DNA of 64,000 nt from Nitrospiraceae bacterium (GCA_003599025.1 QZIL01000093.1:24512-88511), one strand, 5' to 3'. Numbered from the stretch's first letter, positions 8,606 to 54,632 are shown. A program made the numbers and translations. Notes: generated by a model not told the origin, from the sequence alone.

Positions 8606-8810
8606 GCTATATACTGGATATTAGAAAAAGTAGACTGAGACATACGAGTAACTGCACATGATACCTTATCATCCTAACTTAATAATATCATTGATATTTA
8701 ATTGAACTGGTTATATCTTATACGAATAAAAAAAATTCAGCAGAAATTGGTGAGTTTATCAGATCGAATGATGATGGTTTATTGCTAATGACTGCCGATC
8801 ATATCCCTGC

Positions 8811-32518: not shown

Positions 32519-32564
32519 ATGCGGGTGTTTTGCTGTCAGTGTACAGCTATATAAAATTTAATGT

Positions 32565-32795
32565 TTCATAAATCAGGCAAGCGGCCTCGGAATCAAGTCG
32601 GATCGACTCGCCGCAAAACCTTTACAATGCGATTGAATATTGAAATTAAACCATTACGGCAGGACTTAACACCTGGTGAAATCCGGAAAGACACCATTTA
32701 TGCTTTCATGAATTTCGCTAACGTAACGCAGGTAAAGCTTTTCCATCAAGTCCGCTTGCCTGGCATAAACAATCTAATGCAACTGCAATATAAAT
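32565..32795 (+). repeat. conserved ~225-nt noncoding element, copy 1 (candidate sRNA or 5' leader)
   Basis: about 75% identical to 51836..52055 along most of its length; carries a 27-nt family-A fragment insertion; the overlapping 78-aa ORF is not conserved in copy 2. Confidence 0.5.
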
Positions 32796-32805
32796 AGGAG
32801 GATTT

Positions 32806-33324: not shown

Positions 33325-33351
33325 AGTCTTGCGACTGACTATTAATCTGCT

Positions 33352-34377
33352 ATGAAATTAAGAGAACTGGCCGACCTCATCGGCGGCAGGATAGCGGGCG
33401 ATCCCGAGGTAGAAATAACCGGAGTAGCAGGCATTGAGAATGCCGGAGAAGGGGACATCACCTTTCTGCATGACATTAATAATGTCCCTGCGGTGTCAGC
33501 CTCGGCCCTGATAGTGAAAGAAGAAATCAGCGGACTGAAGGCAAGCCTGCTGATAGCCGGCAACCCTCACTATGCATTTGCAAGGGCACTGGAGGTTTTT
33601 TATGTTAAGCCGTACAGTCCATCGGGCATCAGCGACAGGGCCCTAATCGGTACCAATGTCAGGATGGGAGACAATGTATCAGTCCATTCGAATGTGTATA
33701 TAGGCAACGATGCTGAGCTGGGGGCAGGTGTAACTTTGTCTTCCGGGGTCTTTCTGGGCGAGGGGTCTGCAGTAGGGGAAGGCTCATTCATCTATCCGAA
33801 TGTGACAATAAGGGAGAAGGTGAAGATTGGCAGGAGAGTTATCGTGCATTCAGGTGCGGTCATCGGTTCTGATGGATTCGGTTATGTTCCTGAAAAAGGC
33901 AGCCACTACAAAATACCGCAGGTGGGAGGTGTAATTATTGAAGATGACGTGGAGATCGGGGCCAATGTATGTATTGACAGGGGTACTGTAGGTAATACCG
34001 TCATAGGCAGCGGGACCAAGATCGATAATCTGGTGCAGGTTGCCCATAATGTAAAAATCGGAAGGAATTGTATAATAGTGGCGCAGGTCGGCATAAGCGG
34101 CAGTGTGGAAATAGGCAACGGGGCGATTATAGCAGGGCAGGTCGGGATCAAAGACCATGTTAAGATAGGCGCCGGAGCAATTGTTGCCGCACAGGCGGGC
34201 GTGTCCGGCGATCTTTCAGGAGGCCAGATATATTCAGGGAGCCCGGCAATTCCTCATGGAATATCGCTGAGGGCCCAGAGCATTTATTCAAAACTGCCGG
34301 AATATATTAAACGCATACGGGAAATCGAAAAGAAACTGGGGATATCCGGAAAGGTCGACGAAAAAAAGGACAAGTGA
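33352..34377 (+). CDS. lpxD: UDP-3-O-acylglucosamine N-acyltransferase
   Basis: 341 aa; N-terminal LpxD domain plus hexapeptide LbH repeats. Confidence 0.9.
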
Positions 34378-34465
34378 TAAAACTGCAGCGGGCACTTTTT
34401 CCATAGCAGTGTTACCGTGGTCAAGTTTAGATAATACGAATAGCTGGACAAGGAGGAAAAGTCAG

Positions 34466-34906
34466 ATGATGAACATCCGTGAAATTCAAAAAATCCTGCC
34501 GCACCGTTATCCTTTTCTGCTGATCGACAGGATTATTGAAATGAACCCGAAGGAAAAGGCGGTGGGTCTTAAGAATGTAACTGCCAATGAGCAGTTTTTT
34601 CAGGGACACTTCCCGGGTTATCCAATAATGCCGGGCGTATTAATAATAGAAGCGATGGCCCAGGTGGCAGGTATACTCGCATTTCAATCCGGTGCCCAGG
34701 GGAATTCAGTATATTTTATGAGTGTTGAGAAGGCCAAATTCAGGAAACCGGTCGTCCCCGGAGACCAGCTCCGTTTCGAAGTGAACATAATTCAGAACAG
34801 AAGCAATGTCTGGAAATTTTCCGGGCAGGCCTTTGTCGACGAACAGGTTGTCGCAGAGGCTGATTTTACCGCTATGGTGACAGAACAGGAACTCGGAAAT
34901 GGCTAA
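34466..34906 (+). CDS. fabZ: 3-hydroxyacyl-ACP dehydratase
   Basis: RBS aggagg; LPHRYPFLLIDRI...GHFPGYPIMPGVLIIEAMAQ. Confidence 0.9.
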   Translation: MMNIREIQKILPHRYPFLLIDRIIEMNPKEKAVGLKNVTANEQFFQGHFPGYPIMPGVLIIEAMAQVAGILAFQSGAQGNSVYFMSVEKAKFRKPVVPGDQLRFEVNIIQNRSNVWKFSGQAFVDEQVVAEADFTAMVTEQELGNG

Positions 34907-35678
34907 ACAAAAAATTCATCCAACAGCAATAGTTGATTCAAAGGCGAAATTTTCAGAAGGAGTTGAGATCGGCCCTTACTGTATTGTCGGCGCCGGGGTA
35001 CATCTGGGTAAAAATACTAAACTGATTTCGAATGTTCATATAGAAGAGACGGAAATGGGCAGTGACTGCACAGTATACCCGTTTACAGTGATAGGCCTGC
35101 AGCCCCAGGACATGAAGTACAAAGGAGAGAAGACTAAAGTCCATATCGGCGATAACAATATTATCAGGGAGTACATTTCGATCCATCGCGGTTCAGTAGG
35201 CGGAGAGGGAATTACAAGAATAGGGAGCAATAATTTCCTGATGGCATATGTGCACATTGCCCACGACTGCCGTGTAGGAGACAACGTAATAATGGCCAAT
35301 GCCACGACACTTGCGGGCCATGTTACAGTAGAGGACTATGTTTTTATCGGAGGTCATGTTGCTGTGCACCAGTTTACAAATATAGGGGCATATGCCATGA
35401 TCGGTGGGTTCAGTGCCATACCGCAGGACATCCCGCCTTACACAACGGCGGCAGGCGACAGGGCCAAATTATACGGGTTGAACACAGTCGGTCTTAAGCG
35501 CCAGAATTTCAGCGACGCACAGATAAAGGAACTGAAACATGCATACAAGATACTGTTCCGCAGCAAACTTACACTGAAGGAGGCCCTTGCCCTCTTAAAG
35601 CAGGATGGAAAACTCTCAAAGGAAATAAAAAATCTGATCGAGTTTATTGAAAAGAACAAAAGAGGGATATGCCGGTAA
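34899..35678 (+). CDS. lpxA: acyl-ACP--UDP-GlcNAc O-acyltransferase
   Basis: 259 aa; IHPTAIVD start, hexapeptide repeats, C-terminal helical domain. Confidence 0.9.
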   Translation: MAKQKIHPTAIVDSKAKFSEGVEIGPYCIVGAGVHLGKNTKLISNVHIEETEMGSDCTVYPFTVIGLQPQDMKYKGEKTKVHIGDNNIIREYISIHRGSVGGEGITRIGSNNFLMAYVHIAHDCRVGDNVIMANATTLAGHVTVEDYVFIGGHVAVHQFTNIGAYAMIGGFSAIPQDIPPYTTAAGDRAKLYGLNTVGLKRQNFSDAQIKELKHAYKILFRSKLTLKEALALLKQDGKLSKEIKNLIEFIEKNKRGICR

Positions 35679-35690
35679 AGGCAGCGGCAA

Positions 35691-36560
35691 GTGGCAAGTA
35701 AAGAAAAGAACAGCTCACAGCCCGCGAACCCCGCCCCCCGCATTTTAGCCCTTATCGCCGGGATGGGGCAGCTGCCCCTCTCAATTGCAGTCGAGGCAAA
35801 GAAAATGGGGTATTATGTTGTAGGCATAGCCCTGCAGCCTCCTGCAGATGAGTCCCTGAGGCCTGTTGCGGATGAATTTCATAAGGTAAGAATAGGCAGC
35901 TTCGGCGGCCTGCTTGCATTACTGAAAAAACTGTCAGTGACAGAAGCTGTTATGGCCGGTAAAATCCCCAAAAAACTCCTTTACGAAAACAAAAAGAGTC
36001 TTATCCCTGATATCCAGGCCGTAAAACTTATCTTTTCCTTAAAGGACCGCGCTGATGATTCTATAATGAAGGCCGTTGTGAAGGAGCTTGAGAAAAATAA
36101 CGTTAAGGTCCACATGACGACCACATTTACCAGGGACCTCATGGCACCGGAAGGGGTTTTGACCCGGCAGAAACCTTCAAAGGATGACATGAAGGACATC
36201 GAGTTCGGATGGGCCATAGCCAGGGAAATAGGCAAGCTTGATATCGGCCAGACGGTCGTAGTAAAGAAGATGGCCGTGATGGCGGTTGAGGCGATTGAAG
36301 GCACTGATGAAGCTATTCTGAGAGGCGGGTCCCTCGCTCAGAAAGATGCCGTTGTAATAAAAGTAAGTAAACCCCAGCAGGACATGAGATTTGATGTGCC
36401 GGCAGTCGGGCACGATACGCTCGGCTCCATGAAAAAGGTCGGAGCAAAGGTGCTGGCGCTGGAAGCAGGGAAATGCATCATCGTTGATAAAGACCATTTC
36501 CTTAAAGAGGCGGACAAGGCAGGCATATCAGTCATTGGTATCAATCCTGAAAAGAGCTGA
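35691..36560 (+). CDS. lpxI: LpxI family UDP-2,3-diacylglucosamine hydrolase (DUF1009)
   Basis: 289 aa; GTG start; LALIAGMGQLP N-terminus; follows lpxA as in lpxI-type clusters. Confidence 0.7.
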   Translation: MASKEKNSSQPANPAPRILALIAGMGQLPLSIAVEAKKMGYYVVGIALQPPADESLRPVADEFHKVRIGSFGGLLALLKKLSVTEAVMAGKIPKKLLYENKKSLIPDIQAVKLIFSLKDRADDSIMKAVVKELEKNNVKVHMTTTFTRDLMAPEGVLTRQKPSKDDMKDIEFGWAIAREIGKLDIGQTVVVKKMAVMAVEAIEGTDEAILRGGSLAQKDAVVIKVSKPQQDMRFDVPAVGHDTLGSMKKVGAKVLALEAGKCIIVDKDHFLKEADKAGISVIGINPEKS

Positions 36561-36940: not shown

Positions 36941-37333
36941 ATGTCCGATTTTGTAAAAGACGACATAGCACTTGCCAATGCTGTAGGCGCAGGCATTACT
37001 CATTCGTGTGAGTCGTTTGTGGAAGAATATACCGACCTTGTGCTGTCCAGGGTATGGAACCTTGCAAAGACTCACTGCGGACATCCTGCCAGAGAAAGAG
37101 TATGTTCTCTTGTCATACTTCAGAAACAGAGGAAAGGCTCTGATTATTACGTTGAAGACCAGTGTGATGACTGCCTGGACTCATACATATGGTTTTTTGA
37201 TTTCCTGAAAAGAAAGGTCAAGACATATAAAGGGACCAATAACTGCCGTCTCAAGACATATGTCTGGTCATTGGTCAACTCCAACTCTACATATATTGAA
37301 TGGTTAAGGTGGAAATATGGAAGGGCCTTTTAG
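36941..37333 (+). CDS. sigma-70 family region-2-like protein with Cys-rich insertion (possible split sigma factor, part 1)
   Basis: 130 aa; FVEEYTDLVLSRVW...TYVWSLVNSNSTYIEWLRWK resembles sigma70_r2; Cys cluster HSCES..HCGHP..C..DQCDDC. Confidence 0.45.
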   Translation: MSDFVKDDIALANAVGAGITHSCESFVEEYTDLVLSRVWNLAKTHCGHPARERVCSLVILQKQRKGSDYYVEDQCDDCLDSYIWFFDFLKRKVKTYKGTNNCRLKTYVWSLVNSNSTYIEWLRWKYGRAF

Positions 37334-37928
37334 CAAAACCGTCATAGAGAGGTTCCCGTCAGTAATTAAAGCCCTGAATGAAACCTGTCAGCAGGCTTTC
37401 ATATATCTGCGTTTAAGAAAAACAGAAACAGAAATATCAAGGCTGCTTAATCTGACTATTGATGATACTCGGGAAATGATAGAAACAGTCCGGAATGAAC
37501 TCATCAGGGCCGGTCTGCTCGACCTGATAGAAGATCCACGCTTTGTACCGATACACTCGGACGACCCTGACCTGCCTGACCTGCCGATTGAGGCAGGGGA
37601 ACTTGCTGCAGACAGCAGACTTATTGTCAGTGAATTCTTCTCACATCTCAAGGATGCAGTCACTAAGCTTCATGGTCATCAGACCAATCTGTTACGGCTG
37701 AGATACAAACACCAGCTTTCGGCCAAAGATATACTGGGGTTCTGCAAACATATTGGGACAAGCCTTGTCCCCGGCAGAGATGTTTCAGAACTGAAAGAAC
37801 AGGATGTCTTCTATGCACTCAATACAGCAGTAAAAGAGGTCCTTAAACAGCTGAAGTCCCGGTACAAGGGAGAAGAATCATTCAGTACGGAGAACCTCAA
37901 ATACATCTTTGAAGAGATTGGCTTGTGA
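37317..37928 (+). CDS. sigma-70 region-4-like protein with duplicated HTH (possible split sigma factor, part 2)
   Basis: 203 aa; +1 frame and 17-nt overlap with previous ORF; two region-4-like segments (QQAFIYLRLRKTETEISRLLNLTIDDTREM and NLLRLRYKHQLSAKDILGF). Confidence 0.45.
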   Translation: MEGPFSKTVIERFPSVIKALNETCQQAFIYLRLRKTETEISRLLNLTIDDTREMIETVRNELIRAGLLDLIEDPRFVPIHSDDPDLPDLPIEAGELAADSRLIVSEFFSHLKDAVTKLHGHQTNLLRLRYKHQLSAKDILGFCKHIGTSLVPGRDVSELKEQDVFYALNTAVKEVLKQLKSRYKGEESFSTENLKYIFEEIGL

Positions 37929-41545: not shown

Positions 41546-41995
41546 ATGAAAAAACTTTTTCTGACATTAACAATAATTCTGTCTATGACCGGCACGGTCT
41601 TTGCCGGCCCTGAAAGAGTAACGCTGATTACAGAGGATGAAGGCGCCATGAAAGATGCCCCCCCAGGACTTTATGACGTGGGGAGGGTTCTTAACACCGG
41701 TCCTGAGATAAAGATTATTTCACCCGAAATTGCAGATGAATATCATCCCCCTGTTGACATTAACATTGTTTTTGAACCGACAGATGATGCGAAAGTCGAC
41801 ATGTCAAAGTTCAAGGTTGAGTATATTAAAATAATGTCTCTTGATATTACAGACAGGTTTTTGCAATACACAACTAAAGATGGGATAAGGATCAAGAATG
41901 CCGACTTCCCGAGAGGCAAACACAAATTGAAGGTCACTATCGGGGATGATCATGGCGGGATAACTGAGGAGATATTTACAGTCAAGCTGCTGTAG
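41546..41995 (+). CDS. secreted hypothetical protein
   Basis: 149 aa with signal peptide (TGTVFA/GPE); no family recognised. Confidence 0.45.
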   Translation: MKKLFLTLTIILSMTGTVFAGPERVTLITEDEGAMKDAPPGLYDVGRVLNTGPEIKIISPEIADEYHPPVDINIVFEPTDDAKVDMSKFKVEYIKIMSLDITDRFLQYTTKDGIRIKNADFPRGKHKLKVTIGDDHGGITEEIFTVKLL

Positions 41996-42191: not shown

Positions 42192-42839
42192 ATGTTCAGA
42201 TTACAGTCTCTTTTTTCATTGCTGGTTTTTCTGATTGCATTGGCAGACGGTGCCTCTGCAGGGTCTGCTTATGACAATGTTTACGCGGAATACCCGAAAG
42301 ATAAATACCTTGTGGGTATAGGCGAGACCGGCAGGACCGGGAATTTCCTGAATGACAAAAGGGTTGCTGAGGTGCTTGCGAGGCTCGAAATTGCCAAGCA
42401 GATAAAGGTCAGGCTCAAAGAAGAAACCGTAGATATAATGTGTGAAGGCGGGGCAGCAAGGCTGTTCAAAGACATGCGCGAATGCAGAAATGAATTTGTC
42501 ATGGTAGTTGAAGTCACTGTCGATGAGTTTCTTTCGGGCTCAAAGATAGTCAGTCATTGGGAACAGGATGGAATTGTATATGCAGTAGCTGTACTGCCGA
42601 AGGCAGAGGCTGTCAAAGAACTTGATGACAGGTCAAAGGAGTCGGCAGACAGGACCAGGGAAAATATTGAAAAGGCCAAAAACGGAGACGACGGGGCTGC
42701 TGGCGAAGCACAAAGGGAATATATGAAAGCAGTGACATATGACAGGGAAAAAGAGATGCTTGACGGAGTCAGAAGCCGTTCATCGGACATGTTTGATGAG
42801 CTTGAGAAGGAGTTGGTGAAGCTGGGGGGTAAGGAATGA
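42192..42839 (+). CDS. LPP20-like secreted protein
   Basis: 215 aa; signal peptide; YLVGIGETG...AEVLARLEIAKQIKVRL core similar to 40721 and 45301 products. Confidence 0.5.
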   Translation: MFRLQSLFSLLVFLIALADGASAGSAYDNVYAEYPKDKYLVGIGETGRTGNFLNDKRVAEVLARLEIAKQIKVRLKEETVDIMCEGGAARLFKDMRECRNEFVMVVEVTVDEFLSGSKIVSHWEQDGIVYAVAVLPKAEAVKELDDRSKESADRTRENIEKAKNGDDGAAGEAQREYMKAVTYDREKEMLDGVRSRSSDMFDELEKELVKLGGKE

Positions 42840-45160
42840 AAACCATAAAGATGGCAATGCTGCTTTTGGTCCTTATTATGCCGGCATATGTTTATTCTGC
42901 CGACAACAAAAAAGATCCCTCTCAGAATGGGGAGAAAACTGACTTCAGGATATTTAAGGGCCATTCAGAGGAAGTTCTCACGATTGCCTTAAGTCCGGAC
43001 GGCCGGATGCTGGCATCGGGTGGTGAAGATGAAATTGTTATTCTCTGGAATGTATCCACCGGAGAAAAGATAAGGACGCTCAAGGGACACTCGGGCCATG
43101 TTACGGCACTGTCCTTCAGTCCTGCCAACCAGACACTGGCTTCTGGAAGCAAGGACAAGAAGATAATTATATGGGATGCAGCTACCGGTGAGAAGATAAA
43201 GGACTTCAGTGACGACAGCTTCGATGCTGTCCTGTCAATTGCCTTCAGTCCTGACGGCAAAAGCCTTGCGGTCGGAAGTGAGGAGGAAACCATTACCTTA
43301 TGGGACCCGGAATCTGGAAAGACAATAAGAACTCTGAAGGGACATTCAGATGAAGTCTGTTCCCTGGCCTTCAGCCCAGACGGAAAATTGCTCGCCTCAG
43401 GCAGCGGTGATAAAACAATTATTATATGGAACCCTGTGACCAGCGAAATCCGCAACACCCTGAAAGGCCACAAAGATACGGTAAACTCTGTGGCGTTCAG
43501 TCCCGATGGCCGGGTGTTGGCCTCTGGTAGTGAGGACAGGACAATCGCCCTCTGGAATATTGCTTCCGGGGAAAAAATAAATATGCTGACTGACAATAAA
43601 GACTCTGTGCAGTCTGTTGCCTTCAGTCCTGATGGAATGCTTCTCGTCTCAGGCAATGAGGACGAAACCGTTACCATATGGGACGCGCAGACCGGAGGTA
43701 AACTAAAAATTCTTTCAGGGCATAAGGACATGATTACATCAGTTATATTCAGTCTGGATGGAAGCTCCCTTATATCAGCCGGTGAGGACAGAAATATAAT
43801 TGTCTGGAATACCGGCTACAGGACCTCATTCGCAGGTCCGCCGGCATCTGTCCCCTCACCCGCTGCTCCCCTGTCGGCAACAAAGGCCCCGGCAAATAAA
43901 ATCCCGGAAGTCAAGGTCCCGACTGTTAAAACCCCGGCATTTGCCCCTAATCTCCCTGTTCTGGCTGCGCCTGAACTGATGTACGATGTCAGGGTGGATG
44001 ATGCGAATGGCAACGGGATTTTCGAGGGAGGAGAAACTATCAAAGTGACAGTGAATATTGAAAACAGGGGCAAGGGTGCTGCCGAGGCTGTTGAGATATT
44101 GGTGTCCGGCAATAATTCACTGATATACTGCCTTGGAAACAGCAGGGTTGTGGGCGATGTTGGCCCCGGCAGTAAAAAAGATGTAATCCTGCAATGCACT
44201 CTGCCCACTCGCCTTAAGGCTGAAACAGCCCACATTTCTCTGGAACTGGCAGAGCAGAGGGGTTATTCACCCGCGGAAATAAAGTCCTTTACTGTTGCCA
44301 TGAAACCAGCTGATATAATAAAGACCGAGCACATAATTTCCCGGCATATAGATGTGGATGTGGTCCCTGCAAAAAACAGTAATTTCAGGAGGGACAATTC
44401 ATATGCTCTTGTAATAGGGATCAGCAATTATCGTGACAAGGAAATTCCTCCGGTCAAATACGCAAAATCAGACGCGGAGAAATTTGCAAAGTACCTCGAA
44501 AATATCGGAGGGGTCCCGGCAAAGAACATCAAGCTGGTCACTGACGAGATGGTGACCAAGGGTGACATTGAAGCATATATCGAAGACTGGCTGCCGAGAA
44601 GGATAAAAAAAGATTCCGAGGTCTTTGTTTATTATGCCGGACACGGTACTCCTGACCCCCGTACCGGTGAGGCATATATTGTACCATATGACGGAAATCC
44701 TGATTACAAATCAAAGCTCTATCCCCTTAAAAGGATGTATGCCTCTTTAAACAAGCTGCCGTCAGAACAGGTTGTTGTTATGCTGGATTCCTGTTTCTCC
44801 GGAGGAGGGGAGAGGGGTGTAATGAGTCAGGGGACCAGGCCTGTAAGTCTGTCTGTTGAGAACCCTATCCTGGCCGGAGGGAAGGTTTTTGTACTTGCTT
44901 CAGCTTCAGGGACGCAGATAAGTTCAGATTTTGATAAGGTAAAACACGGATTATTTACTTATTATCTTCTTAAAGGGATGAAGGGCGATGCGGACGAAGA
45001 CATGAACGATAAAATAGAGCTTCAGGAACTCTATAAGTATGTAAAGCATAACGTCTCTGAGACCGCATCATCTGAACTGAACAGAGAACAGATGCCTGTG
45101 CTTCTGCCTGATATGGAGCAGCACAGACCTGCAGCGATCGAAATAACAAGGGTGAAGTAG
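42836..45160 (+). CDS. secreted WD40-repeat / CARDB-like / caspase (peptidase C14) fusion protein
   Basis: 774 aa; signal peptide; seven WD40 blades (LASGS.D..I.IWD); CARDB-like middle; C-terminal caspase fold with His (YYAGHG) and Cys (LDSCFSGG) dyad. Confidence 0.8.
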   Translation: MKTIKMAMLLLVLIMPAYVYSADNKKDPSQNGEKTDFRIFKGHSEEVLTIALSPDGRMLASGGEDEIVILWNVSTGEKIRTLKGHSGHVTALSFSPANQTLASGSKDKKIIIWDAATGEKIKDFSDDSFDAVLSIAFSPDGKSLAVGSEEETITLWDPESGKTIRTLKGHSDEVCSLAFSPDGKLLASGSGDKTIIIWNPVTSEIRNTLKGHKDTVNSVAFSPDGRVLASGSEDRTIALWNIASGEKINMLTDNKDSVQSVAFSPDGMLLVSGNEDETVTIWDAQTGGKLKILSGHKDMITSVIFSLDGSSLISAGEDRNIIVWNTGYRTSFAGPPASVPSPAAPLSATKAPANKIPEVKVPTVKTPAFAPNLPVLAAPELMYDVRVDDANGNGIFEGGETIKVTVNIENRGKGAAEAVEILVSGNNSLIYCLGNSRVVGDVGPGSKKDVILQCTLPTRLKAETAHISLELAEQRGYSPAEIKSFTVAMKPADIIKTEHIISRHIDVDVVPAKNSNFRRDNSYALVIGISNYRDKEIPPVKYAKSDAEKFAKYLENIGGVPAKNIKLVTDEMVTKGDIEAYIEDWLPRRIKKDSEVFVYYAGHGTPDPRTGEAYIVPYDGNPDYKSKLYPLKRMYASLNKLPSEQVVVMLDSCFSGGGERGVMSQGTRPVSLSVENPILAGGKVFVLASASGTQISSDFDKVKHGLFTYYLLKGMKGDADEDMNDKIELQELYKYVKHNVSETASSELNREQMPVLLPDMEQHRPAAIEITRVK

Positions 45161-45300: not shown

Positions 45301-45837
45301 ATGAAGTTATTTCTGACATCGATTTTTCTTTTTTCATTCTTGACAGCCTGCCAGTCAGCCTATGTCAAACCATCAGGCCCGCCGCCTGCCTGGGTGGTCA
45401 GGACGCCTGATATGAAAGGCATGATCTGTGCTGTCGGGGCAAGCGGTCCCACGTATTTCAGGGATGACGCGCAGTTGAATGCTGCTGAAAACGCGAGGGC
45501 GGAGCTCGCAAGGACGATAAGCGTCAGCATTAAGAACATAATGGTCGAGATGACTTCTGACAAAGGCAGCTATATTGATGACGCGACCGTAAGTGAGGTC
45601 TCGTCTTGGGCCACCTCGGCAGTTGTGGAAAATTCCAGCATAATGGAGTACTGGTATGACGCGGACGGTCAGGTGTCGAAAAAGGATTTCACCTATGCCC
45701 TTGGCTGCATGCCGCGCAAGTTTGACAGGAAGTCTCTTGAGGCGCACATGTCTGATTCACATTCTGCCGGCCAGGGGAGTCATAATGACATCAGCCGCGC
45801 GGCAGATGAGATACTCAGGCAGCTTGAGGGGGAGTGA
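45301..45837 (+). CDS. LPP20/FlgP-like lipoprotein
   Basis: 178 aa; lipobox LTAC; PPAWVVRTPD...AVGASG...AAENARAELARTISVSI. Confidence 0.55.
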   Translation: MKLFLTSIFLFSFLTACQSAYVKPSGPPPAWVVRTPDMKGMICAVGASGPTYFRDDAQLNAAENARAELARTISVSIKNIMVEMTSDKGSYIDDATVSEVSSWATSAVVENSSIMEYWYDADGQVSKKDFTYALGCMPRKFDRKSLEAHMSDSHSAGQGSHNDISRAADEILRQLEGE

Positions 45838-45925
45838 ATGCTTATGTTGGTTCAATCATTCTGATTGAACTATAAAGCTAAATTATATGGAGCATCTCCG
45901 AAAAAGTGCTAATAAGCAGATGGTT

Positions 45926-45998
45926 GTCATTCCCGCGCAGGCGGGAATCCAGAGCCTTTGAAAGGACCAGATTCCGGTTTAAGGACTGCCGGAATGAC
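45926..45998. repeat. family-A element
   Basis: GTCATTCCCGCgcagGCGGGAATCC...gccGGAATGACag; overlaps the 5' leader of the FGE-like gene. Confidence 0.7.
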
Positions 45999-46007
45999 AG
46001 GAAGGGC

Positions 46008-47054
46008 ATGAAAAATATAATCCTGGCCATCATTATCTCTATGGTATTATCCTCTTATGCATTCGCTGCCGAGGTCAAGAACGTTGTCTCCTCCCAGTCA
46101 GGCAACCGCGTGCTCTTTGAATATGACCTGACCGGAGAAGAGAAAGAGGCTGACGTTAATATCACGATCACCGTCAACGGCACGGCCTATAGCGCAGAAA
46201 AGCTCTACCTTGAGGGTGATTATGGGAAGGTCAGCTTAGGCAAGGGTAGGAAGATATACTGGAACGTGCTCCAGGACTTTCCGAGGGGACTTAATACGAC
46301 GTTTGAGTGGGAGATAACTGAGGGAGGCAAAGACTTCAAAGATCCGTTGACAGGAATGGAGTTTGTCTTTGTTAAAGGTGGGTGTTTTCAGATGGGGGAT
46401 ACGTTTGGCGATGGAGATGCGGATGCGAAGCCGGTACATGAGGTGTGCGTGGATGATTTTTATCTGGGGAAATATGAGGTGACTCAGAGGCAATGGAGAG
46501 AGGTTATGGGGAACAATCCTTCGTATTTCAAGAACTGTGGCGATGACTGCCCTGTGGAACAGGTGAGTTGGAACGATGTGCAGGAGTTCATTAATAAGCT
46601 GAATGAAAAGATAACCCCCCATAGTCCCCCCTTAGATAAGGGGGGAAGAAAAGGGGGGTACAGACTTCCTACAGAGGCGGAGTGGGAGTATGCCGTACGG
46701 AGCTGTGGGAAGAAGGAGGAGTACTCAGGTAGTGACAGTATTGACAGTGTGGCATGGTATGACAGTAATTCGGGAAGAAAGACACATCCTGTAGGGCAGA
46801 GAAGTCCTAATGGTCTCGGCATTTATGACATGAGCGGCAATGTATGGGAATGGGTACAGGACTGGTACGGGGAGAAATATTACGGTGAAAGTCCCAAGTA
46901 CAATCCTAATGGACCGAACAGTGGAACCGCTCGCGTGCTGCGCGGCGGGTCTTGGAGCAATATTACGAGGTATGCTCTCACATCCAATCGCGTCAGGTAC
47001 CATCCCGACTACAGATTCAACAACGTCGGGTACCGCCTTCTTTGGACTAAGTAG
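46008..47054 (+). CDS. secreted FGE-sulfatase (SUMF1/EgtB/PvdO) fold protein, apparently lacking the catalytic Cys pair
   Basis: signal peptide; N-terminal beta domain; FGE core (YRLPTEAEWEYA...NGLGIYDMSGNVWEW...RVLRGGSW...VGYRL). Confidence 0.8.
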   Translation: MKNIILAIIISMVLSSYAFAAEVKNVVSSQSGNRVLFEYDLTGEEKEADVNITITVNGTAYSAEKLYLEGDYGKVSLGKGRKIYWNVLQDFPRGLNTTFEWEITEGGKDFKDPLTGMEFVFVKGGCFQMGDTFGDGDADAKPVHEVCVDDFYLGKYEVTQRQWREVMGNNPSYFKNCGDDCPVEQVSWNDVQEFINKLNEKITPHSPPLDKGGRKGGYRLPTEAEWEYAVRSCGKKEEYSGSDSIDSVAWYDSNSGRKTHPVGQRSPNGLGIYDMSGNVWEWVQDWYGEKYYGESPKYNPNGPNSGTARVLRGGSWSNITRYALTSNRVRYHPDYRFNNVGYRLLWTK

Positions 47055-47276: not shown

Positions 47277-47618
47277 ATGAAGAAGACAATAAAACCGCCT
47301 CTAAGAAAGTCTGTGCTGAACACCATATTAAAACGTCTGGTGGATAACCTTGACGTTGTCAAGATAATCCTATTTGGCTCCTATGCTTCAGGCAAGCCGA
47401 CAAAGGACAGCGACCTGGACCTTCTCATCATTCTGAATACCAAAGAAAAAGGGCTGAAACGCTATGCGATGGTCAGTGAGCTGCTTGAGCCGAGAAAAAT
47501 ACCGATGGACATCATTGTAAAGACGCCTGAAGAGATGAAGAGCAGGGCCAGGATGTTTGACCCATTTTTGAGAACGGTTCAGAAAACAGGGAAGATCCTC
47601 TATGAAAAACCAGCCTGA
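47277..47618 (+). CDS. nucleotidyltransferase (MNT-type antitoxin)
   Basis: 113 aa; LFGSYASGKPTKDSDLDLLIIL Pol-beta NTase motif. Confidence 0.8.
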   Translation: MKKTIKPPLRKSVLNTILKRLVDNLDVVKIILFGSYASGKPTKDSDLDLLIILNTKEKGLKRYAMVSELLEPRKIPMDIIVKTPEEMKSRARMFDPFLRTVQKTGKILYEKPA

Positions 47619-47988
47619 TGTCCTTGAATGGATATTGAAAGCAGAACAGGATTATGAGACTGCTGAAACAATGGCCCGCAGAAGGAAGAATCCTGTGCCT
47701 GATGTGGTCGGTTTCCACAGCCAGCAATGCATTGAAAAATATTTAAAGGCCTATCTCGTTTTGAAAAAGCTCGATTTTCACAAGACGCACGACCTGCTTG
47801 AACTCCTTGAAATAGCTCTCGCAAAAGATCCGCTCCTCGAAGGATACAGGGCCGACCTGCGACTGTTAAATCCATTCTCTGTTCAATTCCGTTATCCCGG
47901 TGAAAGCGCGACACTGGAAGAGTCAAAAACGGCATTGAAGGCCATGCGCAAGGTGCGGATGTTTATTAGAGAAAAGTTTAATCTGTAA
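47602..47988 (+). CDS. HEPN domain protein (toxin partner of MNT)
   Basis: 128 aa; overlaps MNT gene by 17 nt; HEPN fold with conserved ...FRYPG.. region. Confidence 0.75.
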   Translation: MKNQPDVLEWILKAEQDYETAETMARRRKNPVPDVVGFHSQQCIEKYLKAYLVLKKLDFHKTHDLLELLEIALAKDPLLEGYRADLRLLNPFSVQFRYPGESATLEESKTALKAMRKVRMFIREKFNL

Positions 47989-48005: not shown

Positions 48006-49397
48006 ATGTTTAAAAAATTATCTGCCGTTACATTAGCAATTATCCTTTCAGCCTCAATGGCTTTTGCCGAGAAAGGCTCTCTTAAGATCGGCATCCTTCC
48101 CGCGCCCCCAAACATTTCAGCGAGCGTGAAATTTACCGAGCCGTCAGGCAACAACATCCTCGACGCGGAGGAGACAGGCACGCTGACCATCATTATAAGC
48201 AATTCCGGGAAGGGGGACGCCTTTGACGTCACGGCTGAGCTAAAGGCGGACAAAAAGACCAGAGGCTTTACCTATAACAATACCGTATCTTTTGGCACGA
48301 TACCTGCCGGTAAGCAGTCATCGATGGACATTGAACTAAGGGCCGGGGAAGACATCCCCACCGATAATATAGCTTTCTCGATAACCGTAAAGGAGGCAAA
48401 CGGCTTTGACGCGGACCCGCTTAAGGTGGCGTTCAGGACAAAGTCCTTTGAGCCTCCAAGTCTCATTATCGCTGACATCGGCATAGACGACCAGAACGGC
48501 AATTCATCTGTCGAGCAGATGGAGATTGTGGTTGAGGGCGTAGACGCGCCGAAGGGAGAGATAAGGGTAGCAAAAGGTCTCAGCGTGGACATTGAACAGG
48601 GCCTGCCGGTCACAAAGACACAGAACAGGGACGCCTTTGCGGTGGTCATGGGCAACTCGGAGTACAAATACGCGAAGAACGTCGACTTTGCGGTAAATGA
48701 CGCTCAGATGGTAAAACGCTATTTGACCGAAGTCCTTGGCTTCAGGGAGGGCAATATCTTCATACTTGCCAACGCGACAAAAGGGGACCTTGAGCTCTAC
48801 TTCGGGACCAAAGACAATTTCAAAGGCAAACTCTTTAACCAGGTAAAGCCGGGCAGGTCGGACATTTTTATCTATTATTCAGGGCATGGCGCCCCGGGCC
48901 TGAAAGACAGGAAAGGCTACATCGTCCCTGTCGAGGCAGACCCGCAATATATCGAACTGAGCGGCTACCCGCTGGATGTCTTCTACAGCAACCTCTCGAA
49001 GCTTCCTGCAAAGTCCGTGACGGTAGTGACGGACGCGTGCTTTTCAGGCGCAGACATTTATGACAGCATCTCACCGATAGTCCTTGAGATAGACAACCCG
49101 GTCATAAACCTGAATAACGGAATCGTGCTTTCAAGTTCGACAGGAACTCAGGTCTCGACATGGTACAATGAGAAGAAGCACGGGATGTTCACGTACTTCT
49201 TTTTGAAAGCAATACACGACAGGAACGCGGATTATGATGGGAACAGGGAGCTTACATTTGATGAAATTTACCGGTATATTTCGGACAGGTCCGACGGCGT
49301 TCCCTATTACGCAAGAAGCATACATAATGTGGAGCAGACGCCTGTCATTCAGGGAAAGTATCAGGGCAGGGTGTTGGTGACGTATGAGGAGAAATGA
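48006..49397 (+). CDS. secreted caspase family protein (peptidase C14) with N-terminal CARDB-like domains
   Basis: 463 aa; signal peptide; His (IYYSGHG) and Cys (VTDACFSG) catalytic dyad. Confidence 0.8.
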   Translation: MFKKLSAVTLAIILSASMAFAEKGSLKIGILPAPPNISASVKFTEPSGNNILDAEETGTLTIIISNSGKGDAFDVTAELKADKKTRGFTYNNTVSFGTIPAGKQSSMDIELRAGEDIPTDNIAFSITVKEANGFDADPLKVAFRTKSFEPPSLIIADIGIDDQNGNSSVEQMEIVVEGVDAPKGEIRVAKGLSVDIEQGLPVTKTQNRDAFAVVMGNSEYKYAKNVDFAVNDAQMVKRYLTEVLGFREGNIFILANATKGDLELYFGTKDNFKGKLFNQVKPGRSDIFIYYSGHGAPGLKDRKGYIVPVEADPQYIELSGYPLDVFYSNLSKLPAKSVTVVTDACFSGADIYDSISPIVLEIDNPVINLNNGIVLSSSTGTQVSTWYNEKKHGMFTYFFLKAIHDRNADYDGNRELTFDEIYRYISDRSDGVPYYARSIHNVEQTPVIQGKYQGRVLVTYEEK

Positions 49398-49592: not shown

Positions 49593-50930
49593 ATGAAAAA
49601 AATATTTCTGGTATCGGCCATATTATTCATTTTTACCTCGTCAGCCTTTGCCGAGTTCCCTGCTGTAAAGGTATACGAGAAGACGGCAAAGAATGTTGTG
49701 CTGATAATCGCCAAAAGCGAAGACACCAGCAGTATGATAGGCGCGGGATCCATTATTTCAGGCACTGGACTGGTCTCTACAAACGCACATGTAGTTGTTG
49801 ACAAGTCTACCTCAAAACCATATTCAAAGATCAGGGTATATCTTAAACCTGATAAGGTGACCGGGAAGTTCAGGAAGGACCTTGTCCATAGCCATAAGGC
49901 TGAAATAGTAGCATATGACATCGACCTGGACCTGGCCATTCTGAAAGCTGAAGAAATCCCGTCCGGGACAGGGACCATAGAACTTGCAAACCCGGATGAG
50001 ATAAAAGTCGGCGAAGAGGCAGTGGCTATCGGCCACCCTGAGCAGGGAGGCCTCTGGACCCTCACATACGGAAGAATAAGCGGAGAAATAGAAGACCAGA
50101 ACAGCATAAAGGGTAAAGACGTATTTCAGACAGACGCGAGCGTCAACCGCGGCAATTCCGGCGGCCCTCTCCTCGATAAAAGAGGGTACATGATAGGCAT
50201 AAACTCAAACATGGCGCGTCTGGGGGCAGGTGATATTCCGATAACAGGTGTTAATTTTGCTGTCAAGGCCTCGGTGCTGAAAAGCTGGCTTCAGAAGCAG
50301 GGGATTACACTTGCTTATGGAAAAGCGGACCTGTACAAAGAAGAACGGGTGAAGCCCGCAGGAGCAGAACTTGAGATGGAGAAAAAATCTGAACAACCGG
50401 AAGTACCAAGGGCAGAACCCTCTGTTGAGAAAGCAGAGCCTGTTATAGAGAAACCGGAACCGTCTGTTGAAAAGACTGAGCCGTCGGTAGAAAAAGCAGA
50501 ACCAGTCGCTGAGAAAGCGGAACCATCTGTTGAAAAGACTGAGCCGTCGGTAGAAAAAGCAGAACCAGTCGCTGAGAAAGCGGAACCATCTGTTGAAAAG
50601 ACTGAGCCATCAGTAGAAAAAGCCGAACCTGTCGTTGAGAAGGCGGAACCATCTGTTGAAAAGGCGGAAGCCCCTGTCGAGAAGGCGAAACCTGTAATAA
50701 GGCAGGCTGAACCACCTGTCAGGAAATCACATACTGTTGTTGAAAAAGCGGAACCCCGTGCTGAACAGAAAGACATGAAAGACGGGGACGGAGAGAAAAC
50801 GCCGGAGACTGAACAGACTGAAAAATACCAGCCTCATCGTAAGGCCTACAGCTATGACTCATTGTTGAAGGCAGCTGAAGAAGATCTTGAAGACATGATG
50901 GAGGAGATGAGGGGAAAGATCAGAAGGTGA
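49593..50930 (+). CDS. secreted trypsin-like serine protease with C-terminal EK/P-rich tandem-repeat linker
   Basis: signal peptide; TNAHVV (His), DLAIL (Asp), GNSGGPL (Ser) triad; C-terminal repeats (EKAEPSVEKTEPSVEKAEPVA)n. Confidence 0.7.
   Translation: MKKIFLVSAILFIFTSSAFAEFPAVKVYEKTAKNVVLIIAKSEDTSSMIGAGSIISGTGLVSTNAHVVVDKSTSKPYSKIRVYLKPDKVTGKFRKDLVHSHKAEIVAYDIDLDLAILKAEEIPSGTGTIELANPDEIKVGEEAVAIGHPEQGGLWTLTYGRISGEIEDQNSIKGKDVFQTDASVNRGNSGGPLLDKRGYMIGINSNMARLGAGDIPITGVNFAVKASVLKSWLQKQGITLAYGKADLYKEERVKPAGAELEMEKKSEQPEVPRAEPSVEKAEPVIEKPEPSVEKTEPSVEKAEPVAEKAEPSVEKTEPSVEKAEPVAEKAEPSVEKTEPSVEKAEPVVEKAEPSVEKAEAPVEKAKPVIRQAEPPVRKSHTVVEKAEPRAEQKDMKDGDGEKTPETEQTEKYQPHRKAYSYDSLLKAAEEDLEDMMEEMRGKIRR
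50448..50700 (+). repeat. in-frame 63-bp coding tandem repeat (about 3.5 units)
   Basis: the unit gagaaagcggaaccatctgttgaaaagactgagccgtcggtagaaaaagcagaaccagtcgct is repeated nearly perfectly inside the protease gene. Confidence 0.75.
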
Positions 50931-51817
50931 TGAAGATAGAGAGCATAAAAATAATCAAATGCCTGCTTTCATTTTTTATTGTTACATATGCTGTGGCGGT
51001 ATATTCTTCAAAGGCGCTTAGAGCTGAGGACACGGCCCCGCTTGTTCCGGACAATGATAACCTTAAGATAGTAGAAGCTGTTGGAGAAATTCTGCTTGGT
51101 GATGACACCACCCCTGCACAGGGCAGGGCAATGGCCCGTAATAACGCGAGGAGAAATGCTCTTGAACAGGCAGTAGGGGTAAAGGTCCACAGCTCGACAG
51201 TTTTATACAATAGCAGCCTTATAAGCGACCTTGTTGTAACAGCCACCAAGGGGCTGATAGTTGAAGAACAAATAATTGATGACGGGCCGGTCATAAAAGG
51301 AGACCAGATATATCATATTTGCAAGCTCAGGGCATATGTAAAGCCTGTCAATATAGAAAAGAGAGGGAACTTCAGGGTCCTTAAAGCTGAAGTCCTGAGG
51401 GCCGGGTCGGACAGAGGTCTTAAAAACCCTGTATTTCAGGACAATGATGAAATACAGGTGATAGTAAGTGTTAATGAAGCTTCACATATAAATATTTTCA
51501 GCGTGAGCCAGGACGGAATGGTTTCGCAGCTTTATCCGAATAAATTTTTTAAATCAGAGCAGCTGGCTGCCGACAAGACCATGATATTCCCGGATGATGC
51601 CCAGCGGGCACTTGGACTGAGACTCCGTGTAAGGACCCCGAAAAAACTGAGCTCGGCACTTGAATCGGTGCTCGTGGTAGCTTCAAAGGAAATGATCGAG
51701 TTGCATCCTGCAGACGGGATGAATGAGCTTATGCTTACGGACGTTCTGAAGAGTCTTTCTGGAATCGATCCGTCATTATGGGCTGATATGACAGTCGGGT
51801 ATGAGGTGAGGAAGTAG
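50927..51817 (+). CDS. LPP20-like plus DUF4384 domain protein
   Basis: 296 aa; signal peptide; N-terminal LPP20-like core (AVGEIL..AQGRAMARNNARRNALEQAVGVKV); C-terminal DUF4384-like (EIQVIVSVNEASHINIFSVSQDGMVSQLYPNKFF). Confidence 0.55.
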   Translation: MMKIESIKIIKCLLSFFIVTYAVAVYSSKALRAEDTAPLVPDNDNLKIVEAVGEILLGDDTTPAQGRAMARNNARRNALEQAVGVKVHSSTVLYNSSLISDLVVTATKGLIVEEQIIDDGPVIKGDQIYHICKLRAYVKPVNIEKRGNFRVLKAEVLRAGSDRGLKNPVFQDNDEIQVIVSVNEASHINIFSVSQDGMVSQLYPNKFFKSEQLAADKTMIFPDDAQRALGLRLRVRTPKKLSSALESVLVVASKEMIELHPADGMNELMLTDVLKSLSGIDPSLWADMTVGYEVRK

Positions 51818-52576: not shown

Positions 52577-53497
52577 ATGATAAACGCAGGTGTTATCGGA
52601 ACAGGATCAATCGGGATGCATCATGCCAGGATTTATTCCGGCCTGGAAGGGGTGCATCTTGCCGGAATATTTGATGCAGATGCTGCACGGGCGCAGGAAA
52701 TTGCGGCGAAGTTTAACTGTAAGGTGTTCAGCAGTTATCAGGAGCTTATAGACTCTGTTGATGCTGTCAGCATTGCGGTCCCCACTACTTTGCATTATGA
52801 AATAGCTATGGCCTGTCTGAAAAATAACAGGCACATTCTGGTTGAAAAACCGGTCACCACTACACTGGATGAGGCTGACAGACTAATTGAGGAGGCAGAC
52901 AGCAGAAATCTGACATTCCAGGTCGGTCATCTGGAACGGTTCAATGCCGGGGTCTCCATGATAAGCGCCATGGTGAACAAGCCGAAATTCATCGAATCCC
53001 AGCGTCTTTCACCATTTCTGGGCAGGGGGACGGATGTTGATGTTACCCTTGACTTAATGATACATGACATAGATATAATACTGAGCCTGGTTGATTCGGA
53101 GATTGCCGATATCCGTGCAACAGGGGCAAGGGTGCTTACAGGAAATATAGACATTGCACATGCATGGATAGAGTTTGAAAACGGCTGCATTGCTGAAGCA
53201 GTGTCAAGCCGGATAGCAGAGGACAAAAAAAGAGAGCTCAAGGTCTTCCAGCATAATGCTTACCTGAATCTGGACTACCAGAAGCAGGAAGTGTCGAGTT
53301 ATATAAAACAAAACGGAAACGTGGAAAAGGAGACAAGGAACCCCGAGGTAAAAGAACCGTTAAAAGAGCAGCTGGTCTCTTTTATCGAATGTATCAGGAA
53401 CTCTACTGAGCCGCTGGTCTCAGGCAGGGAAGGGAAAGAGGCTCTGAAAGTGGTACTGAAAATATCAGGGCTGGTCAACCGGGGGTTTGCAAGCTAA
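52577..53497 (+). CDS. Gfo/Idh/MocA family sugar-nucleotide dehydrogenase
   Basis: 306 aa; MINAGVIGTGSIGMHHA Rossmann fold; paired with a DegT aminotransferase. Confidence 0.8.
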   Translation: MINAGVIGTGSIGMHHARIYSGLEGVHLAGIFDADAARAQEIAAKFNCKVFSSYQELIDSVDAVSIAVPTTLHYEIAMACLKNNRHILVEKPVTTTLDEADRLIEEADSRNLTFQVGHLERFNAGVSMISAMVNKPKFIESQRLSPFLGRGTDVDVTLDLMIHDIDIILSLVDSEIADIRATGARVLTGNIDIAHAWIEFENGCIAEAVSSRIAEDKKRELKVFQHNAYLNLDYQKQEVSSYIKQNGNVEKETRNPEVKEPLKEQLVSFIECIRNSTEPLVSGREGKEALKVVLKISGLVNRGFAS

Positions 53498-54632
53498 GAA
53501 AAAAGATATGCCAAAAATAACAGAAAACATAAAGACAATACCCATGCTTGATCTCAAGGCACAACATGAACCTCTCAATGAGGAAATTAAGACCGCTGTA
53601 AGAGAGATACTCGACAGCAGCCGCTTTATACTGGGTCCTAATGTGTCTTCATTTGAACAGGAAGTTGCTGCTTATCATAATGTAGCAGGCGCAGTCGGCC
53701 TTGGATCAGGCACAGATGCCCTCTACCTTGCTCTAAGGGCTCTTGATATTAAAGAAGGCGATGAGGTTATTACAACACCGTTTACTTTTTTTGCTACTGC
53801 TGAGGCGATAACCTATGTAGGTGCGACCCCGGTTTTTGTTGATATAGACCGGCAGACCCTGAATATCGACCCTTTAAAAATAGAAGAGAAAATTACTTCA
53901 AAAACAAAGGCCATCATTGTTGTACATCTCTTTGGTCAGCCTGCAGAGATGGATGAAATTATGTCCATAGCCGGCAAACACGGGCTGAAAGTCATTGAAG
54001 ATTCTGCACAGGCCTTCGGGGCAAAGTATAAGGGCAGGCCCGTAGCAGGTATCGGTGATGCGGGATGCTTCAGCTTTTACCCGAGCAAGAATCTGGGGGC
54101 TTACGGTGACGGCGGTATGCTGATAACTAATAATCCCGAAATATCCGAAAAGGTCAAACTGTTAAGAAATCACGGTACAACGGGCCCCTATCAGCACAGC
54201 TTTATCGGGTACAACAGCAGGCTTGATGAAATACAGGCAGCTATACTGAGAATAAAATTTAAACACATAGATACTTATAACAGTAAAAGGCGTGATATTG
54301 CCGCGCTCTACACCTCGTTGATCGGTAATGCCGTTGCATGTCCGGTAGAAAAACAGGACAGGGTGCATGTTTACCACCAGTATACATTCAGGACCCCTGT
54401 AAGGGCAGCAGTGGAAAAGGCCCTGCACGACAACCATATATCAGCGGTTGTGTACTACCCCATTCCACTCCATTTGCAGGTGGCCTTTAACTATCTCGGT
54501 TACAAACCTGGTGATCTGCCGGAAGCAGAGGCAGCAGCCGGGGAAGTGCTCTCAATACCCATCTACCCGGAGCTTGAACCGGAAGACGTAAAGATGATTG
54601 CAGGGGTCATTCTTAAGGCTCTGCAAAAATAG
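53487..54632 (+). CDS. DegT/DnrJ/EryC1/StrS family aminotransferase
   Basis: 381 aa; PLP-dependent fold (VHLFGQPAEMDEI...FSFYPSKNLGAYGDGG); start ambiguous (TTG 53487 or ATG 53508). Confidence 0.85.
   Translation: MQAKKKDMPKITENIKTIPMLDLKAQHEPLNEEIKTAVREILDSSRFILGPNVSSFEQEVAAYHNVAGAVGLGSGTDALYLALRALDIKEGDEVITTPFTFFATAEAITYVGATPVFVDIDRQTLNIDPLKIEEKITSKTKAIIVVHLFGQPAEMDEIMSIAGKHGLKVIEDSAQAFGAKYKGRPVAGIGDAGCFSFYPSKNLGAYGDGGMLITNNPEISEKVKLLRNHGTTGPYQHSFIGYNSRLDEIQAAILRIKFKHIDTYNSKRRDIAALYTSLIGNAVACPVEKQDRVHVYHQYTFRTPVRAAVEKALHDNHISAVVYYPIPLHLQVAFNYLGYKPGDLPEAEAAAGEVLSIPIYPELEPEDVKMIAGVILKALQK

Follow-up and report, generated by a model that had tools for sequence, protein, structure and literature searches.

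Apaf-1 and the bacterial and fungal STAND-WD40 proteins with metacaspase effectors combine a WD40 propeller with a caspase-family protease. In the Apaf-1 logic a STAND nucleoside triphosphatase (NTPase; NB-ARC/NACHT) acts as the switch, and a death-fold adaptor recruits a separate caspase. The subject of the present analysis is a gene that joins propeller and protease within one chain, at positions 42836-45160 (+ strand) of a stretch of 64,000 nucleotides from a Nitrospiraceae bacterium (GCA_003599025.1, QZIL01000093.1:24512-88511), the whole of which is referred to here as the window. The gene is a single uninterrupted open reading frame (ORF) with an ATG start that encodes 774 amino acids (aa) in the order signal peptide, WD40 propeller, Pro/Ala linker, Ig-like domain and Peptidase_C14. 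Judging from its sequence the product is probably an exported cysteine protease of clan CD, family C14, of the bacterial metacaspase-like or orthocaspase kind. An identical protein is recorded as "hypothetical protein" from a Nitrospiraceae metagenome-assembled genome (MAG), and orthologues of 54-78% identity from Nitrospirota MAGs are labelled "caspase family protein".

An earlier note on this DNA had likened the protein to Apaf-1 and the apoptosome, a comparison that does not hold at the level of architecture. Unlike Apaf-1 and the STAND proteins, the protein has no NTPase switch, no CARD or death fold and no second propeller, and it is predicted to be exported. Pfam scans gave no NB-ARC, NACHT or other NTPase family and no CARD or other death-fold domain, and the lone Walker-A-like regular-expression match, AFSPDGKS, is a WD40 motif. 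CARDB, which figures among the domain names below, is an Ig-like domain of bacterial adhesion and has no relation to CARD. The periplasm moreover is free of ATP, which would make a switch driven by nucleotides implausible there. What is supported from that comparison is the idea of a propeller that serves as a binding module joined to a caspase-type protease. Direct fusions of WD40 to a caspase were already known in the early 2000s and are not specific to apoptosomes. Among 671 sequences of prokaryotic caspase homologues, WD40 is the accessory domain met most often (10.9%, with FGE-sulfatase in fifth place), and "metacaspase-NACHT-WD40" is a prokaryotic architecture on record (Asplund-Samuelsson et al. 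2012, PMC3501461). The protein is one member of an extensive family of caspase homologues in the bacterial envelope, not an apoptosome-like machine.

Orthocaspases and other metacaspase-like proteases share with the protein the C14 His-Cys dyad, an acidic S1 pocket (predicted here), WD40 domains and probable signal-peptide helices, and FGE-sulfatase, TPR and DUF4384 recur as their partners as they do in the family described below. DUF4384 and WD40 are both listed for cyanobacterial orthocaspases (PMC7475262), and the N-terminal helix of many prokaryotic caspase homologues has been called "likely a signal peptide" in a paper that also considers an extracellular role (PMC3501461). The described orthocaspases usually have an N-terminal p20 domain followed by the accessory domains (Klemencic and Funk 2017, PMC5756287), whereas the order is reversed in the present protein, and its catalytic domain is predicted to be exported. 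Bacterial C14 homologues with WD40 accessory domains are thus known already, while full export and a catalytic domain placed last are less discussed. The literature searched held no study of this architecture or of its operon.

The closest structural match is the paracaspase MALT1, an Arg-specific, cytosolic enzyme that has a death domain and is activated via the CARMA1-BCL10 scaffold. A profile alignment puts the family's His and Cys motifs, together with two acidic S1 residues, on those of MALT1, the identity in the structural match is 16-18%, and in both proteins an Ig domain stands before the caspase. The caspase-fold protein GSU0716 of Geobacter sulfurreducens (PDB 3BIJ) is the third best structural match (1e-11, TM-score 0.62 on the target) and shows marginal sequence likeness to the family profile (E=0.82). 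Among periplasmic proteases of the serine or metallo class, Prc-NlpI, CtpA-LbcA and BepA use TPR or lipoprotein adaptors. They resemble the present case in that an exported protease is combined with repeat-type binding modules and outer-membrane (OM) lipoproteins in an envelope-biogenesis setting, but their binding module is separate where it is fused here, and they have no sequence relationship to it. The Craspase of type III-E CRISPR systems (Csx29 TPR-CHAT, with Csx30 as substrate) likewise joins a caspase-like protease of clan CD to a repeat domain; it differs in being cytoplasmic, RNA-guided and of CHAT rather than C14 type, and the target locus has no CRISPR components. By way of Csx30 a sigma factor comes under the control of a clan-CD protease, and some Csx30 C-terminal domains are DUF4384 (preprint 10.1101/2022.08.17.504292).

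Catalytic domain

The domains of the protein lie in the window as follows.

42836-42898 (+): signal peptide, residues 1-21 (MKTIKMAMLLLVLIMPAYVYS, then ADNKK), from sequence heuristics, AlphaFold2 and orthologue conservation
42944-43813 (+): seven-bladed WD40 beta-propeller, residues 37-326, from PF00400, AlphaFold2 strands and blade boundaries
43823-43960 (+): disordered Pro/Ala-rich linker, residues 330-375, from composition and model confidence
43967-44311 (+): Ig-like (CARDB-like) beta-sandwich, residues 378-492, from AlphaFold2 strands and homologue records
44393-45157 (+): Peptidase_C14 caspase-like catalytic domain, residues 520-774, from PF00656, alignments, AlphaFold2 and Foldseek

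Every item on the domain list of the earlier note is thereby present, the CARDB-like domain as an Ig-like beta-sandwich, as seen with Pfam, AlphaFold2 and the sequence scan. The full-length AlphaFold2 model has a predicted TM-score (pTM) of 0.46 although the predicted local distance difference test (pLDDT) exceeds 90 within domains, which points to a modular form like beads on a string.

Peptidase_C14 (PF00656) matches residues ~522-755 with E=1.2e-21 and 78 bits against a cut-off of 21.4, and the NCBIfam model NF047832, "caspase, EACC1-associated type", scores 96 bits, under its curated cut-off of 140. His603 in the motif YYAGHG (codon 44642-44644) and Cys653 in LDSCFSG (codon 44792-44794) are invariant in 47 diverse relatives, as are the Gly, Asp and Ser residues that flank them. 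A single caspase-domain sequence found no match in PDB with phmmer. A profile of the caspase domain alone, with the WD40 columns trimmed off, matched yeast and Candida metacaspase-1 (E ~1.5e-6), MALT1 (1e-4) and plant metacaspases, and placed the GHG of the family on YSGHG of Yca1 and YYAGHG of MALT1 and its DsC on LLDMC of MALT1. The residues at these positions are the catalytic ones, H415 and C464 of MALT1 and H220 of Yca1. An AlphaFold2 model of residues 375-774 (pLDDT 87) retrieved MALT1 as the best Foldseek match (3e-12), GSU0716, metacaspases and caspase-9, all between 3e-12 and 4e-08, and the modelled domain has the caspase/haemoglobinase fold. The caspase domain with His and Cys in the expected motifs, as the earlier note had it, is borne out in this way: the Pfam score lies above the cut-off, the dyad falls on the catalytic positions of MALT1 and His603 also on that of Yca1, and the structural matches to MALT1 and metacaspases agree. 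By alignment His603 and Cys653 form an intact C14 active site.

Two further invariant residues, Asp546 and Asp651, align to the aspartates of "PLVDV" and "LDMC" in MALT1 and to "GCINDA" in Yca1. Counting residues from H415 and C464, the MALT1 aspartates are presumably Asp365 and Asp462 of its acidic S1 pocket. Since Asp546 and Asp651 lie on these acidic residues, the S1 pocket is predicted to be acidic and cleavage to occur after Arg or Lys rather than after Asp. The metacaspase p10/Ca2+ region gave an insignificant second stretch, with QISSD placed over QTSAD of Yca1 at -0.4 bits. Both models leave the loop of residues 655-670, just past Cys653, disordered; two of its residues, Arg660 and Arg668, are near-invariant. 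Because caspases and type II metacaspases are processed in the loop directly after the catalytic Cys, autoprocessing within residues 655-670 may reasonably be inferred.

Signal peptide, propeller and Ig-like domain

The N-terminus shows the three regions of a signal peptide in a heuristic scan: an n-region MKTIK (+2), an h-region MAMLLLVLIM of ten residues with a mean Kyte-Doolittle value of 3.14, and a c-region with small residues at -3 and -1. The sole AXA-like small-residue site is VYS-AD after residue 21, which predicts a signal peptidase I cut after Ser21. AlphaFold2 models the N-terminus as a helix (residues 2-14) followed by a disordered tail. Six orthologues keep the layout at a segment identity of merely 29-52%, and in two relatives a lipobox-like Cys replaces the signal peptidase I site (P0010, LPGC; P0017, LYGC). 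The signal peptide proposed in the earlier note is thus predicted here as well, and the protein, its catalytic domain included, is probably exported by the Sec pathway. Neither of the two outcomes that the earlier note named as refuting, a dyad off the catalytic positions or a missing signal peptide, was observed.

Seven canonical WD40 blades, also put forward earlier, are confirmed by seven stretches of PF00400 (E=3.5e-78, Pfam) and by 28 beta-strands (7x4) over residues 37-325 of the full-length AlphaFold2 model, with pLDDT >94. The blades are 42-43 aa long and have a mean pairwise identity of 44%. Tandem Repeats Finder detected no tandem repeat at the DNA level in the WD40 region, so nothing indicates that the repeats have expanded recently or evolved in concert. 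Orthologues share 66-79% identity over the propeller, which diverges faster than the caspase domain, and of all segments the linker evolves fastest. Judged by these sequence comparisons, the propeller is not a WD40 array of the hypervariable kind that STAND immune receptors carry.

The linker of 46 residues (330-375) is Pro/Ala-rich as described before, with 43% Pro+Ala, and is disordered in the model (pLDDT ~32). For the CARDB-like Ig domain the agreement is partial. The AlphaFold2 models contain a beta-sandwich at residues 381-490 and close homologues have PF07705/PF10633 on record; the protein's own match to CARDB (PF07705) stays below the gathering score (E=0.0059, 17.2 bits against a cut-off of 22.7).

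Gene neighbourhood and its conservation

All genes between 36941 and 51817 are on the + strand. The following features surround the target gene in the window; comparisons refer to other loci of the caspase family, which are denoted by L numbers.

30212-36560 (+): bamA-skp(OmpH)-lpxD-fabZ-lpxA-lpxI OM biogenesis block, directly upstream of the cluster
36941-37928 (+): two small genes that overlap (130 aa and 203 aa), kept beside the anti-sigma gene in L003
37982-38875 (+): zf-HC2 anti-sigma factor (Pfam), in the same order in L003 and L010
38919-40610 (+): exported HExxH/TPR protein, probable start ATG 38919; M48 match sub-threshold, in the same order in L003 and L010
40721-41311 (+): LPP20-family lipoprotein of 196 aa with lipobox ISGC (Pfam, lipobox scan)
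41546-41995 (+): conserved exported protein of 149 aa, no family match, orthologues in L001, L002 and L010
42192-42839 (+): upstream LPP20-family exported protein of 215 aa (PF02169, 31.5 bits against a cut-off of 25.9)
42836-45160 (+): the target gene
45301-45837 (+): downstream LPP20-family lipoprotein of 178 aa with lipobox LTAC (Pfam, lipobox scan)
45906-47054 (+): exported FGE-sulfatase-domain protein (E=2e-48)
48006-49397 (+): second exported Ig-like and caspase paralogue of 463 aa, with SGHG and DACFSG
49593-50930 (+): exported HtrA/DegP-type serine protease domain without PDZ, syntenic in L001, L003 and L009-L011
50927-51817 (+): exported DUF4384 protein (Pfam)

Upstream of the target the cluster thus reads 130-aa, 203-aa, anti-sigma, HExxH/TPR, LPP20, 149-aa and LPP20 genes, and downstream LPP20, FGE-sulfatase, an NTase/HEPN pair, Ig-caspase, HtrA-like and DUF4384 genes. 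Every product between 38919 and 51817 has a signal peptide or lipobox save the NTase/HEPN pair. The stop codon of the upstream LPP20 gene overlaps the target start (ATGA), preceded by a Shine-Dalgarno-like GGGGGG..AAGGA, and no excess of terminator-like sites was found in the cluster. An LPP20 gene occupies the same upstream position in L001, L003 and L010, and the counterpart of the downstream LPP20 gene overlaps the stop of the caspase gene in L001 and L003. It is proposed on this arrangement that the target is co-transcribed and translationally coupled with the LPP20-like genes.

The listed start of the HExxH/TPR gene at 38841 is probably too far upstream, as the ATG at 38919 gives the signal peptide MRNKIIVAF...SGAFA-ED and removes the overlap with the anti-sigma gene. 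BepA was not retrieved from PDB with this neighbour, and the resemblance between the two is at the level of architecture only. The FGE-sulfatase gene likewise probably starts later than its listed 45906, at ATG 46008 (MKNIILAIIISMVLSSYAFA), which gives a proper signal peptide. The C-terminal third of the HtrA-like protease is a long low-complexity repeat (EKAEPSVEKTEPSVEKAEPV...). The 203-aa product was considered as a sigma factor and not accepted as one, its matches to sigma-70 region 4 and to RaiA/YfiA being weak (E ~0.002-0.02); it may be a divergent sigma factor.

Conservation of the cluster was followed by a census in which ORFs were called in 88 loci and searched with hidden Markov models built from the window neighbours. 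The order LPP20, 150-aa, LPP20, WD40-caspase, LPP20, HtrA-like and DUF4384 is conserved in L001, L003 and L010. L001, whose orthologue is 62% identical to the target, reads DUF4384, LPP20, 150-aa, LPP20-like, WD40-caspase, LPP20, HtrA-like and, further on, DUF4384 and an OM beta-barrel. L003 reads LpxI, 130, 203, anti-sigma, TPR, LPP20, LPP20-like, WD40-caspase, TPR-caspase, WD40-caspase, LPP20-like and HtrA-like, with start/stop overlaps between caspase and LPP20-like genes, so that LpxI precedes this cluster too. The gene order of L010 is that of the window.

The DUF4384 protein is the most widely conserved neighbour of the caspase family. It stands beside caspase genes in 33 of the 88 loci, 32 times on the same strand and 19 times within 30 base pairs, and the pairing spans Nitrospirota, Desulfobacterota, WOR-3 and Geobacter. 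The DUF4384 partners all have signal peptides. FlgT_N matches the N-domain of five of ten partners in Pfam, once above the cut-off, which makes the partner a two-domain FlgT_N-like and DUF4384 protein; hhalign of these N-domains against the LPP20-like set gave a probability of 22% and E ~1e-3. The partners (the window's own at 50927-51817 and, for example, L061, 8228-9055) share the N-domain motif EKPVWVEAxGEA..GE.DTPKEVK.RA. LPP20 itself (HP1456) is an OM lipoprotein with FlgP and FapH, two flagellar proteins that form rings, as binding partners (PMC11756786). The cultured Dissulfurispira thermophila (L004) has CARDB- and ankyrin-caspases in the neighbourhood of DUF4384, CsgG, FlgT_N-like, SLH and GNA1162-like genes. 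With the FGE domain alone as query, an FGE domain was found near caspase genes in eight loci, three of them fusions (L016, L019 and L033). An operon association of such caspases with DUF4384 and LPP20/FlgT_N-like proteins was not described in the literature searched.

A toxin-antitoxin pair of NTase/HEPN type at 47277-47988 (+) separates the FGE-sulfatase gene from the second caspase gene. Pairs of NTase/HEPN, AbiEii/DUF6036 or ParE type sit at comparable spots within the caspase clusters of three other genomes.

L004: 9209-9837 and 12469-13153
L001: 14326-14829
L003: 15462-17399

Away from the cluster, a low-GC stretch at 8000-12000 (0.36-0.37, against ~0.45-0.48 elsewhere) may be an acquired island. 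It contains two of the remaining features of the window.

8811-9998 (-): AAA_22 ATPase gene, low-GC stretch
10439-11197 (-): GNAT/FeeM-like acyltransferase gene, low-GC stretch
52577-54632: GFO/IDH/MocA and DegT-type sugar-modification genes, between the cluster and the lytic transglycosylase
54835-56589 (-): lytic transglycosylase with an SLT domain and two LysM domains, just past the downstream end of the cluster

Family size and distribution

A scan with the single caspase-domain sequence retrieved 2,664 clusters (50% identity) at E<=1e-30 and 17,813 at E<=1e-10, and at least 584 relatives emerged when species-representative genomes were scanned with a pattern. The top 79 of these are all from MAGs, of Nitrospirota, Syntrophales/Desulfobacterota, Elusimicrobiota, WOR-3, Nitrospinota and Geobacter. 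In most of the 150 top-ranking representatives the caspase domain stands at the C-terminal end, behind 150-750 residues of other sequence, so that the usual orthocaspase layout with an N-terminal catalytic domain is followed neither by the target nor by most of these relatives. Elsewhere the caspase module is fused to TPR, CARDB repeats, PEGA, FGE-sulfatase (P0218, P0229 and P0235), beta-helix, cyclophilin and ankyrin domains. WD40 is fused to the same caspase family in Elusimicrobiota (L044, L045 and L070), and proteins running from signal peptide and WD40 to caspase with two propellers occur in P0024, P0049 and P0117 (named Pyrinomonadaceae/Blastocatellia, Acidobacteria) and in the metagenomic P0014 and P0092.

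Tandem arrays were also observed in which three to six paralogous exported caspase genes with differing N-terminal modules (WD40, TPR and others) lie side by side.

L003: 5439-12598
L030: 1335-13000
L059: 1833-12100
L087: 4947-10750
L006: 8001-19180

Proposed function and alternative readings

We assign a probability of about 0.6 to the reading that the protein is a periplasmic or OM-proximal regulated protease whose propeller docks partners or substrates. For localisation, specificity, activation, docking and physiological process we infer the following course. Export by Sec and cleavage after Ser21 would leave three flexibly linked modules in the periplasm, where lipoprotein partners would probably keep the protein close to the OM. 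His603 and Cys653 would carry out catalysis, and the acidic S1 pocket with Asp546 and Asp651 would direct cleavage to sites after Arg or Lys. The propeller, carried on the 46-residue linker and the Ig-like spacer, would serve as a docking platform and choose the partner protein or substrate, and docking by this tethered propeller would give the protease its selectivity. The interchangeable fused domains, the C-terminal position of the caspase and the faster divergence of the WD40 part all fit the logic of a binding module. The enzyme would probably be made as a zymogen, which would become active once the loop after Cys653 that holds Arg660 and Arg668 is cut or rearranged. Together with the LPP20-like lipoproteins, the HtrA-like serine protease and the FlgT_N/LPP20-like and DUF4384 protein it may form a joint module for envelope proteolysis, in quality control, remodelling or signalling, beside the genes for OM biogenesis.

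Several points weigh against this reading. The localisation is called from sequence heuristics, so that secretion past the OM is possible, and the specificity is read from a profile alignment, in which the third acidic S1 residue (Glu500 of MALT1) finds no secure equivalent. The bamA/lpx link is missing in L001. The LPP20-like, 150-aa and HtrA-like genes are limited to a small Nitrospirota clade (4-8 loci each, 6-8 for the LPP20/HtrA-like set), and among the 88 loci the Elusimicrobiota relatives have no DUF4384 partner; the operon partners may therefore not be essential to the protease. The literature searched also held no exported bacterial caspase homologue that had been characterised biochemically.

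As WD40 and caspase lie within one chain, the propeller could instead be a sensor for a periplasmic or foreign ligand, with clustering of the molecules leading to caspase dimerisation and activation and hence to envelope defence or cell death, a weaker form of the idea in the earlier note. Scaffold-driven dimerisation is how MALT1, the closest structural neighbour, is activated, and the arrays of three to six paralogues with differing binding domains (L003, L030, L059 and L087) and the toxin-antitoxin pairs interleaved at several loci would suit such a role. However, Pfam and regular-expression searches found no NTPase or death-fold domain in the target, no effector such as gasdermin lies nearby, and the propeller, 66-79% identical and without repeat homogenisation, is unlike the fast-evolving WD40 arrays of immunity. 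PADLOC-DB gave only generic caspase, WD40-type and protease-domain matches, none for the LPP20, FGE, DUF4384 and HExxH/TPR neighbours, and no assignment to a defence system, which leaves this sensor unlikely. To the same degree improbable is a cell-surface or secreted protease for nutrients or for attack on other cells, with propeller and Ig domain binding external proteins or surfaces. The signal peptide and the Ig/CARDB, PEGA and SLH domains of relatives, which are typical of surface proteins, agree with it, as does the extracellular role suggested for prokaryotic metacaspases (PMC3501461); against it stand the lipoboxes of relatives, the translational coupling to lipoprotein genes and the envelope-biogenesis neighbours, and no OM translocation or sorting signal was recognised in the target.

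Two further alternatives draw on the neighbouring genes. The anti-sigma and HExxH/TPR genes lie directly upstream in the window, in L003 and in L010, and the WD40-caspase, alone or with the HtrA-like protein, could act as a site-1 signalling protease that turns on a regulon by cutting the zf-HC2 anti-sigma factor in its periplasmic portion. DegS and AlgW, HtrA-family members among the matches of the HtrA-like protease, perform such cleavage in other bacteria. A further case is Csx30, by way of which a clan-CD protease governs a sigma factor and in which DUF4384 forms some of the C-terminal domains (10.1101/2022.08.17.504292). The reading is nonetheless quite unlikely, as the putative sigma partner of 203 aa has weak matches (E ~0.002-0.02), the L001 cluster is not preceded by an anti-sigma module and most family members in other phyla lack such a neighbour. 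The resemblance of the LPP20 and FlgT_N partners to ring or scaffold proteins and the existence of pseudo-orthocaspases (PMC6426788) would allow a catalytically dead scaffold that builds an envelope structure; the invariance of His, Cys and the flanking Gly, Asp and Ser residues across 47 relatives makes this very improbable. Bolder than the regulated envelope protease favoured here, and rather unlikely, is an undescribed periplasmic surveillance or signalling system of exported caspases with swappable binding domains (WD40, TPR, ankyrin, Ig/CARDB, PEGA and FGE/lectin-like) and the FlgT_N/LPP20-like and DUF4384 partner. Ligand capture would activate the caspase at an OM-proximal scaffold, and cleavage of the DUF4384 partner or of the anti-sigma factor would set off an envelope defence or stress response. 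If true, this would be a nucleotide-independent counterpart of apoptosome and Craspase logic outside the cytoplasm.

The question of the origin of apoptosis gains little from this protein, which has no NTPase switch and belongs to a type of fusion long known. The reason for interest lies in the family, which is large while its exported members are uncharacterised in the literature searched, and the pairing with DUF4384 and LPP20/FlgT_N-like proteins, together with the position beside OM biogenesis genes, offers a concrete handle on the envelope role of such enzymes.

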